A stretch of 60,502 nucleotides of DNA, counting the filler, from Dugesia japonica (taxonomy: Eukaryota), in the NCBI GenBank assembly GCA_001938525.1. It is 6 parts of 6 records of this genome, joined end to end, with 100 filler letters (N's around TTAATTAATTAA, not from the genome) between each part and the next. Parts side by side here need not be neighbours in the genome. Positions count along the whole stretch, not along the records: positions 21,049 to 31,207 come from MQRL01639549.1; 5 more parts are not named here. One strand, given 5' to 3'. Below the pieces are notes generated by a model. That model was given only the letters and a program-made list of their open reading frames with translations. It was not told the DNA's origin and did no database searches. The translations under genes and the position numbers were made by a program. This document shows positions 26,961 through 27,179 of this stretch, piece by piece (position 1 is the stretch's first letter; each line of letters starts with the position of its first letter).

Positions 26961-26981
26961 TTTAGTTTCTTGGTAGGTAGT

Positions 26982-27116
26982 AGTAGTGTATAAATGACGG
27001 TTTCCACGCAAGGTTGTTTCCCACGCTCGTAGATGCATCGGCTTACTTTCGTAAAATAAATAGTAAAAATAGCATAAGATAAATAACTGCGTGGAAACCG
27101 TCATTTATACACTACT
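26982..27116. repeat. Perfect 29-bp inverted repeat with 77-bp spacer and AGTAGT...ACTACT ends
   Basis: AGTAGTGTATAAATGACGGTTTCCACGCA (26982-27010) and its reverse complement (27088-27116); TTGGT occurs at 26970-26974 and 27117-27121. Confidence 0.9.
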
Positions 27117-27179
27117 TTGGTTAATGGTTTGAATTTTTAATTTAGATTAGAAAATATAATTATTTTCTAATCGATAAAA

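Follow-up and report, generated by a model that had tools for sequence, protein, structure and literature searches.

A probable Polinton/Maverick left end in Dugesia japonica that carries an inverted copy of its own 29-bp tip

The window considered here is the whole stretch of Dugesia japonica DNA that was analysed, 60,502 nt of assembly GCA_001938525.1 with filler included. Identical 100-nt linkers, each made of 44 N, a 12-nt word with stops in all frames and a further 44 N (10400-10499, 20949-21048, 31208-31307, 40932-41031 and 51808-51907), join contigs of about 10 kb, so that neighbours across a linker need not adjoin in the genome. Outside the contig of interest (MQRL01639549.1) the window holds satellite arrays at 5679-7275 and 8017-8668 with 16-18-nt and 43-nt units, a tubulin-family ORF of 566 aa at 37277-38977, and a Frizzled-family gene at 55042-56397, broken up by a TAT microsatellite and by an N gap. 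Within that contig we are interested in two 29-bp arms near position 27000 and in the sequences on either side of them. From left to right, the features are:

21166..26969, minus strand: low-copy, decayed BIR-RING element that hosts the Polinton insertion (domains, GC, depth)
26970..26981, no strand: flank of the insertion point, with the left TTGGT and half of the expected 6-bp target duplication, or TSD (low depth bin)
26976-26981, no strand: the expected TSD half if the element ends at 26982; the end could be 26979, making this position uncertain by 3 nt
26982..27010, plus strand: outer arm, the Polinton left terminus, with the (AGT)2 motif at its start (repeat, depth step, contig branch)
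27011..27087, no strand: spacer of 77 nt, the fold-back loop (multi-copy, more variable than the arms)
27088..27116, minus strand: inner arm, internal to the element and repeating its terminal 29 bp in inverted orientation (repeat, fold, copies continuing beyond)
27117..27179, plus strand: AT-rich subterminal family sequence, TTGGT first (shared depth; GC from 0.39 to 0.19)
27180..27512, plus strand: the element's first ORF, all-helical and 110 aa long, at very high copy (ORF call, model, depth)
27696..27896, plus strand: second, broken copy of the small ORF (78% identical to 27229-27411; frame change near 27863)
28875..29165, plus strand: major capsid protein of the double-jelly-roll type, N-terminal fragment (similarity to P0005; stop at 29106-29108)
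29169..30287, plus strand: PLA2-rve integrase fusion gene, broken, spanning an N gap (PF08398 and rve domain matches)

The right-hand element is a decayed Polinton/Maverick, integrated and present in many copies. To the right of 27100 the GC content falls to about 0.19. The capsid fragment is 44% identical over 80 aa to P0005, which was reached through P0004 at E 8.4e-4 and which itself matches PF21738 (E 1.3e-12) and double-jelly-roll clusters in Atlas; three further matches of the capsid-fragment search, P0001-P0003, were dropped as repeat-driven. The fusion gene at 29169-30287 matches PF08398 (E 3e-9) and rve (E 0.003), the rve part being 29483-30287 and broken, and its PLA2 part is 79% identical to P0007. 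Twelve integrase homologues were found at E 1e-33 to 2e-12, with PF00665 in 11 of 12 and PF00665 together with PF08398 in 9 of 12. Among the 12 homologues, which include P0006-P0015, 9 have PLA2 fused ahead of the rve integrase. Relatives of the integrase adjoin an A32 ATPase (Pox_A32) at 4 of 11 loci scanned, as judged from 31 of 90 ORFs listed.

The first ORF (27180-27512) has no homologue that we could find; its only Pfam match is a weak one to HTH_Mga (E 0.013), and fold searches gave no match at E 0.001. Its predicted structure has five helices at a pLDDT of 77. The small helical ORF could possibly encode a DNA-binding accessory protein of the Polinton family. Between the two small ORFs lies a 6-nt microsatellite (27565-27610) that is common to many copies. 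No pPolB, packaging ATPase or cysteine protease was seen in the 42 window segments scanned, and the contig ends at 31207. Since the far end, the TSD and pPolB are absent from the contig, this Polinton family may not be protein-primed. Nowhere in the window is an end motif followed by a candidate TSD, nor is there a third copy of the 29-mer.

A search of viral contigs with the integrase gave no match. We also compared 33 related loci, 3 of them viral and 30 metagenomic. None reaches a terminus, and an arm, the small ORFs, the capsid fragment and an end with the AGT motif are absent from all of them. Two distant ones, L001 and L031, carry DNA_pol_B_2, which has little bearing on the Dugesia japonica family. 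A long terminal hairpin at L006 1060-1263 was set aside because integrase coding sequence folds back on itself there, at the end of a contig, likely an artefact of library or assembly, and a resemblance at the end of L016 was rejected because it falls in a coding region. One viral contig, L002, is linear, 12 kb long and apparently complete, with a perfect 55-bp TIR (1-55 and 12038-12092), a PLA2 gene and a 1625-aa ORF that belongs to no Pfam family; it has no Rfam match.

The sequence to the left is of a different kind. On the minus strand it encodes a BIR domain within 24252-25040 (E 6e-11), a RING domain at 24065-24241 (E 7e-14), and coiled-coil and membrane-like segments; its GC content is 0.29-0.41 over 25901-27000, and its frames are broken. 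A weak search with the BIR ORF among longer proteins gave no match, nor did a 112-aa segment in Atlas or the frame read through its stops in Pfam and PDB. The left element is probably a retroelement. According to the part of the source available, planarian Burro retroelements carry BIR and Smc-like motifs (PMC6431247), and by description the left element is like the accessory region of a giant Burro in its BIR domain and coiled coil, a likeness that we treat as a lead only.

The insertion has placed the Polinton in an unrelated BIR-RING element of opposite reading direction, which creates a false appearance of two divergent gene arms. The initial annotation had spoken of two gene arms; the two sides are different elements, which differ in copy number and in base composition. 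It was right that the surrounding genes are decayed, as stops and frame changes are present. Elsewhere in the contig, a 600-bp duplicate occupies 27948-28547 and 30608-31207 (99.8% identity), each copy ending at an N gap, and the last 74 nt of it, which follow a purine-rich tract, recur inverted at 21092-21165. This duplicate is probably a retroelement 3' end with the start of an LTR, or else an assembly duplication. An ORF at 30295-31098 belongs to no Pfam family.

At the border of the two elements lies the inverted repeat. Its arms, 26982-27010 and 27088-27116, are complementary at 29 of 29 positions and are separated by a 77-nt spacer, for a total of 135 bp; pairing stops at their outer ends, with no outward extension. 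With up to 3 mismatches allowed, the 29-mer matches at just two places in the window; two matches occurred in 0 of 100 shuffles. Among perfect inverted repeats in the window with arms less than 1 kb apart this is the longest, the next being 23, 21 and 20 bp, and over 300 first-order Markov resamples of 26000-28000 the comparable maximum reached 16 bp at most (mean 10.6). The perfection of the repeat, as first described, is confirmed. The 23-, 21- and 20-bp repeats, at 20303-20408, 51094-51993 and 1770-1956 respectively, are probably ends of MITEs or DNA transposons.

Folded as single-stranded DNA, the repeat reaches -34.1 kcal/mol (z -6.7), and 0 of 200 shuffles were equally good. On the strand whose 3' end lies at the terminus, the last 10 bases are predicted by folding to pair with the inner arm at a probability of 0.93-1.0. 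The outer arm starts AGTAGT and its partner ends ACTACT, with a single additional AGT on the left at 26979; TTGGT stands at 26970 and at 27117, and each arm contains TATAAA. These small motifs had all been noted before, and all are present. The sole Rfam match, to MIR1515, scores 23.4 bits against a cut-off of 140, short of the gathering threshold, and is a generic hairpin resemblance. Viral and metagenome contigs contain 0 matches to the exact arm patterns. A CSL-like word within the spacer was discarded because positions 27018 and 27022 differ in most copies, and a sigma-70 scan was set aside as not applicable to animal DNA.

In order to place the end of the element, four sequencing runs (X1, X2, X9 and X15) were aligned to 26150-27770 at 85% likeness. 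X1 and X2 are two deep sets of DNA contigs from two studies, X2 possibly being the assembly's own source, and unique contigs in them have a depth of 10-14. An assembly artefact is ruled out, because two X1 contigs bridge the parts: one covers 26596-27011 with 1 difference and spans the left junction, and the other covers 26988-27148 with 2 differences and spans the spacer and the inner arm.

Depth is mostly 25-60 across 26700-26974. The summed depth in X1/X2 then rises from 25/30 at 26920-26974 to 598/720 at 26975-27029, a step of about 24-fold. It is 351/331 at 27030-27084, 570/974 at 27085-27139 and 100/154 at 27140-27194, and 1000-22000 beyond 27194 (1000-21000 over 27195-27524). Summed contig depth does not equal copy number, and AT-rich stretches may draw in unrelated contigs at 85% likeness; read loosely, these depths would mean that the left flank is present in 2-3 copies and the repeat in about 25-30. 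Point depth is 235/319 at 27140 versus 341/310 at 27018 (ratios of 0.69 and 1.03), and 54-128, with indels, at 27160-27175.

The individual contigs place the border at the same point. The X1 contig specific to this locus stops at 27011, and the diverged copies start from 26982, which puts the branch point at the (AGT)2 motif. Record 7 of X1 is such a diverged copy, covering 26982-27141 with 19 differences and 2 gaps, and it has both arms and the same right flank. A joint from 27017 to 27093 occurs in 2 contigs in each of X1 and X2; its shorter side is 36-37 letters long, so that those copies extend to at least 27128. In other copies a joint from 27003 to 27093 also skips the spacer, and this one could be a copy that stops near 27115. 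These observations come from 15 of 25 joints, 20 of 518 loose ends and 24 of 2534 pieces; the pieces listed include no left flank of another copy at 26981, and the 15 joints include neither an empty site nor a change of strand.

Given the depth step at the outer arm, together with copies that run through the inner arm into the right flank, the outer arm is the terminus. The element starts at the (AGT)2 of the outer arm, at 26982 or possibly 26979, and runs rightward; the end motif thus coincides with the border between element and host, uncertain by 3 nt. The inner arm repeats the terminus in inverted form across the family and occurs in many copies. It is not perfect everywhere, since one X9 record departs from it after 27101 (30 letters unaligned) and the joint from 27003 to 27093 possibly ends near 27115. 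X9 (organism B) was rejected as a sign of the repeat in a second species: its depth is 2-5, its contigs are of read length, and it comes from the same study as X1, so that carry-over is possible.

According to PMC8097293, vertebrate Mavericks most commonly end in (AGT)2//(ACT)2; their TSDs measure 6 bp and their TIRs 46-1447 bp. The link to Polintons that had been drawn from the AGTAGT motif is borne out, as the motif lies at the depth step and branch point with the capsid fragment and PLA2-integrase gene to its right, and of the options first proposed, that of a folded-back element terminus gains support from the depth step and the copies that cross the inner arm. We put the probability at roughly 85% that a decayed, integrated Polinton/Maverick has its left end in this repeat and that the inner arm is an inverted copy of the tip.

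The same depths bear on another of the early proposals, that the repeat is a dispersed, non-autonomous mini-Polinton of 135-142 bp flanked by a 5-bp TTGGT target duplication. It has the end motif at both of its ends and TTGGT on either side; TTGGT occurs 21 times in 5810 nt of the left element, and the chance of finding it within 8 positions is about 3%. The depth of the unit also exceeds that of the 27140-27194 bin (100/154), and the joint from 27003 to 27093 may terminate near 27115. However, other copies also have the right TTGGT and the 24 nt that follow it, as the depth at 27140, record 7 and the joint from 27017 to 27093 all indicate, and sequence shared among copies past the inner arm makes this TTGGT part of the family rather than a TSD. 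The left TTGGT does not abut the arm, from which it lies 7 nt away, so that 7 additional unpaired bases would be required at the left end; it is probably a chance occurrence. Furthermore, no empty-site joint is present among the 15 of 25 listed, and a mini-element would need to have inserted precisely where two different elements meet. With a multi-copy right flank and diverged copies that pass 27116, the 135-bp mini-element is largely refuted as the main form and is very improbable as an account of this locus, although a minority of excised mini-copies is possible.

It had also been suggested that the repeat is a mirror-image promoter that drives both arms; a symmetric bidirectional promoter for the flanking ORFs may be considered together with a pair of sites to which a protein, the integrase for example, would bind. 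Each arm does contain TATAAA, and the outer one faces the first ATG of the element, 191 nt away. But the left ORF is part of a different element of low copy number, most copies lack it as a neighbour, and a shared two-arm promoter makes little sense where the left gene is absent. The frame of the left ORF is, moreover, open through the repeat, and the left ATG therefore need not be a start. The oligo-dT RNA run X15 (one sample, of which about 25 in 100 were read) has 3 reads on the right ORF, all less than 90% alike; in that same quarter of one sample, 0 reads fall on the repeat or the left ORF. A symmetric promoter or paired protein site is very improbable. Tissue-specific promoter activity at the repeat is possible, as is, from its motifs, a one-way promoter role for the Polinton element.

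Returning to the terminal repeat with its inverted tip copy, we may ask how the arms have fared relative to the spacer. Among the 40 of 280 differences listed, 5 fall within 26982-27116; of these the spacer has 4 and the innermost base of the arm 1, and the remaining 57 arm positions have 0. Of the 12 of 18 indel rows listed, 2 are in the spacer and 0 in the arms. The innermost base of the inner arm, 27088, differs in 60/70 (X1) and 53/92 (X2) depth units. Some copies retain both arms around spacers that no longer align (joints from 27017 to 27093 and from 27003 to 27093). From these partial lists, the contrast between arms and spacer suggests selection or homogenisation.

Given this anatomy, we see an even chance that the 3' tip of the genome folds back on its inner copy and thereby rebuilds a local duplex origin. 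The putative sequence of events would be as follows. The genome strand would become single, either after excision or by displacement during strand-displacement synthesis. Its 3' tip would then pair with the inner copy into a 29-bp stem flush with the end, and, as the stem has the sequence of the duplex terminal origin, terminal-protein priming could start there. A local stem of this kind, which needs only 135 nt to fold, would spare the genome an end-to-end panhandle spanning 15-20 kb. The same pairing might repair or homogenise the tip, so that the two arms would remain matched even as the loop changes. For panhandle-type pairing, adenovirus minichromosomes require an inverted repeat of about 30 bp. 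In the parts of the literature available, the displaced strand of protein-primed replicons is thought to regain a duplex origin by end pairing, which is also invoked for end repair, while direct evidence of panhandles is lacking, including for PRD1 and adenovirus (PMC11886824); the Polinton model likewise has a racket-like single strand with short terminal repeats (PMC4196379, in part).

The same anatomy could also have no function, the inner arm being a relic of a template switch or of a captured end-to-end deletion product. One ancestral event would then account for all copies, and the variation of the innermost pair and the X9 record that breaks off within the inner arm are consistent with this; we estimate that at a lineage divergence of about 5% perfect arms could persist by chance in a few cases per hundred. 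On the other hand, copies with unalignable spacers keep both arms (joints as above), and the differences listed (40 of 280) avoid the arms. A neutral relic is, in our judgment, rather unlikely.

Alternatively, the folded 3' end could itself be extended, as in parvoviruses, with the hairpin later cut open. The paired 3' end is flush, the rest of the genome could serve as template, and the contig holds no pPolB. There is also a precedent in the palindrome-ended virophages and PLVs of Halocafeteria, which, in the part of the preprint available, have mostly non-pPolB genes (10.64898/2026.07.28.741278). Against such self-priming, the (AGT)2 repeat, a motif tied to protein priming, is kept here; the loop is 77 nt, as compared with the gap of at most 10 nt that was screened in the available part of the Halocafeteria preprint. 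Self-priming should also yield both orientations of the spacer, but the spanning records listed have the window orientation only; less weightily, 0 of the 15 of 25 joints listed change strand. Finally, no gene for a resolving nuclease was seen, and the segments scanned contain no HUH domain. We consider self-priming improbable.

More broadly, we would propose only tentatively, as an unlikely but consequential reading of this anatomy, an animal Polinton family with putative fold-back origins that either prime directly or allow each strand to start replication autonomously. If true, parvovirus-like terminal hairpins and the end repeats of protein priming would be united at a single genome end; the inner copy would also act as a second integrase end and could give rise to mini-elements. 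Polinton replication rests on a model, with an excised single strand, an end-to-end racket and protein priming. A built-in, short-range copy of the tip offers a small and countable test of protein priming versus hairpin priming versus neutral history, in which the discriminating traits across copies are spacer orientation, arm covariation and polymerase content. In addition, MITE finders may mistake such ends for complete mini-elements with TIRs.

How does this end compare with known systems? The element resembles Polinton/Maverick elements of the alpha-adintovirus type in its (AGT)2 motif, rve integrase, double-jelly-roll capsid and PLA2, and in being integrated, multi-copy and mostly decayed (PMC8097293, PMC8502044, both in the parts available), and PLA2-like genes mark alpha adintoviruses in the part of PMC8502044 available. 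It differs from Polintons/Mavericks in that the terminal 29 bp are repeated, inverted, 77 bp inside the same end. It differs from adintoviruses, as far as that portion of PMC8502044 goes, in that PLA2 is fused here to the integrase and there to a pX-like domain. Within the available text of PMC8502044 and PMC8363768 the word 'hairpin' occurs 0 times and an inverted copy of the tip is not described, and the corresponding portions of PMC11296320, PMC8532177, PMC10175614 and PMC8363768 contain nothing on an internal inverted tip copy. We found no report, mainly in the open literature, of an animal Polinton with canonical ends and such a copy, of which Repbase or Dfam may hold an example. Thus, the element itself is of a known kind, and its long-loop fold-back tip with a canonical (AGT)2 start is a variant undescribed in animals in the literature that we found.

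As in the panhandles of adenovirus and PRD1 and in the Polinton racket, an inverted copy would rebuild the duplex origin at the 3' tip; in those systems, according to the available parts of PMC11886824 and PMC4196379, the ends pair across the whole genome, whereas here the partner lies 77 nt away at the same end. The terminal hairpins of parvoviruses likewise present a flush 3' fold-back that is able to prime (rolling-hairpin replication), but here no HUH/NS1 nuclease is seen, the unpaired loop is large, integration is by an rve integrase, and the records listed contain no flip/flop forms of the spacer. The ends of bidnaviruses, thought to derive from Polintons, form no hairpins according to the part of PMC4061559 available.

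The palindrome-ended elements of Halocafeteria seosinensis share with the present end a terminal inverted repeat, an integrated element that bears rve, and the capacity to form a hairpin. In that species palindromes lie in TIRs beside TSDs in virophage subtypes 1, 2, 5 and 6 as well as PLV subtype 4, and the authors propose hairpin priming or accidental annealing (10.64898/2026.07.28.741278). Those palindromes are tight (52 nt in subtype 5) and belong to a protist; here the stem is 29 bp, the loop 77 nt, the host an animal, and the end motif that of protein priming. The present end would carry the theme of terminal palindromes from protist virophages and PLVs to animal Mavericks.
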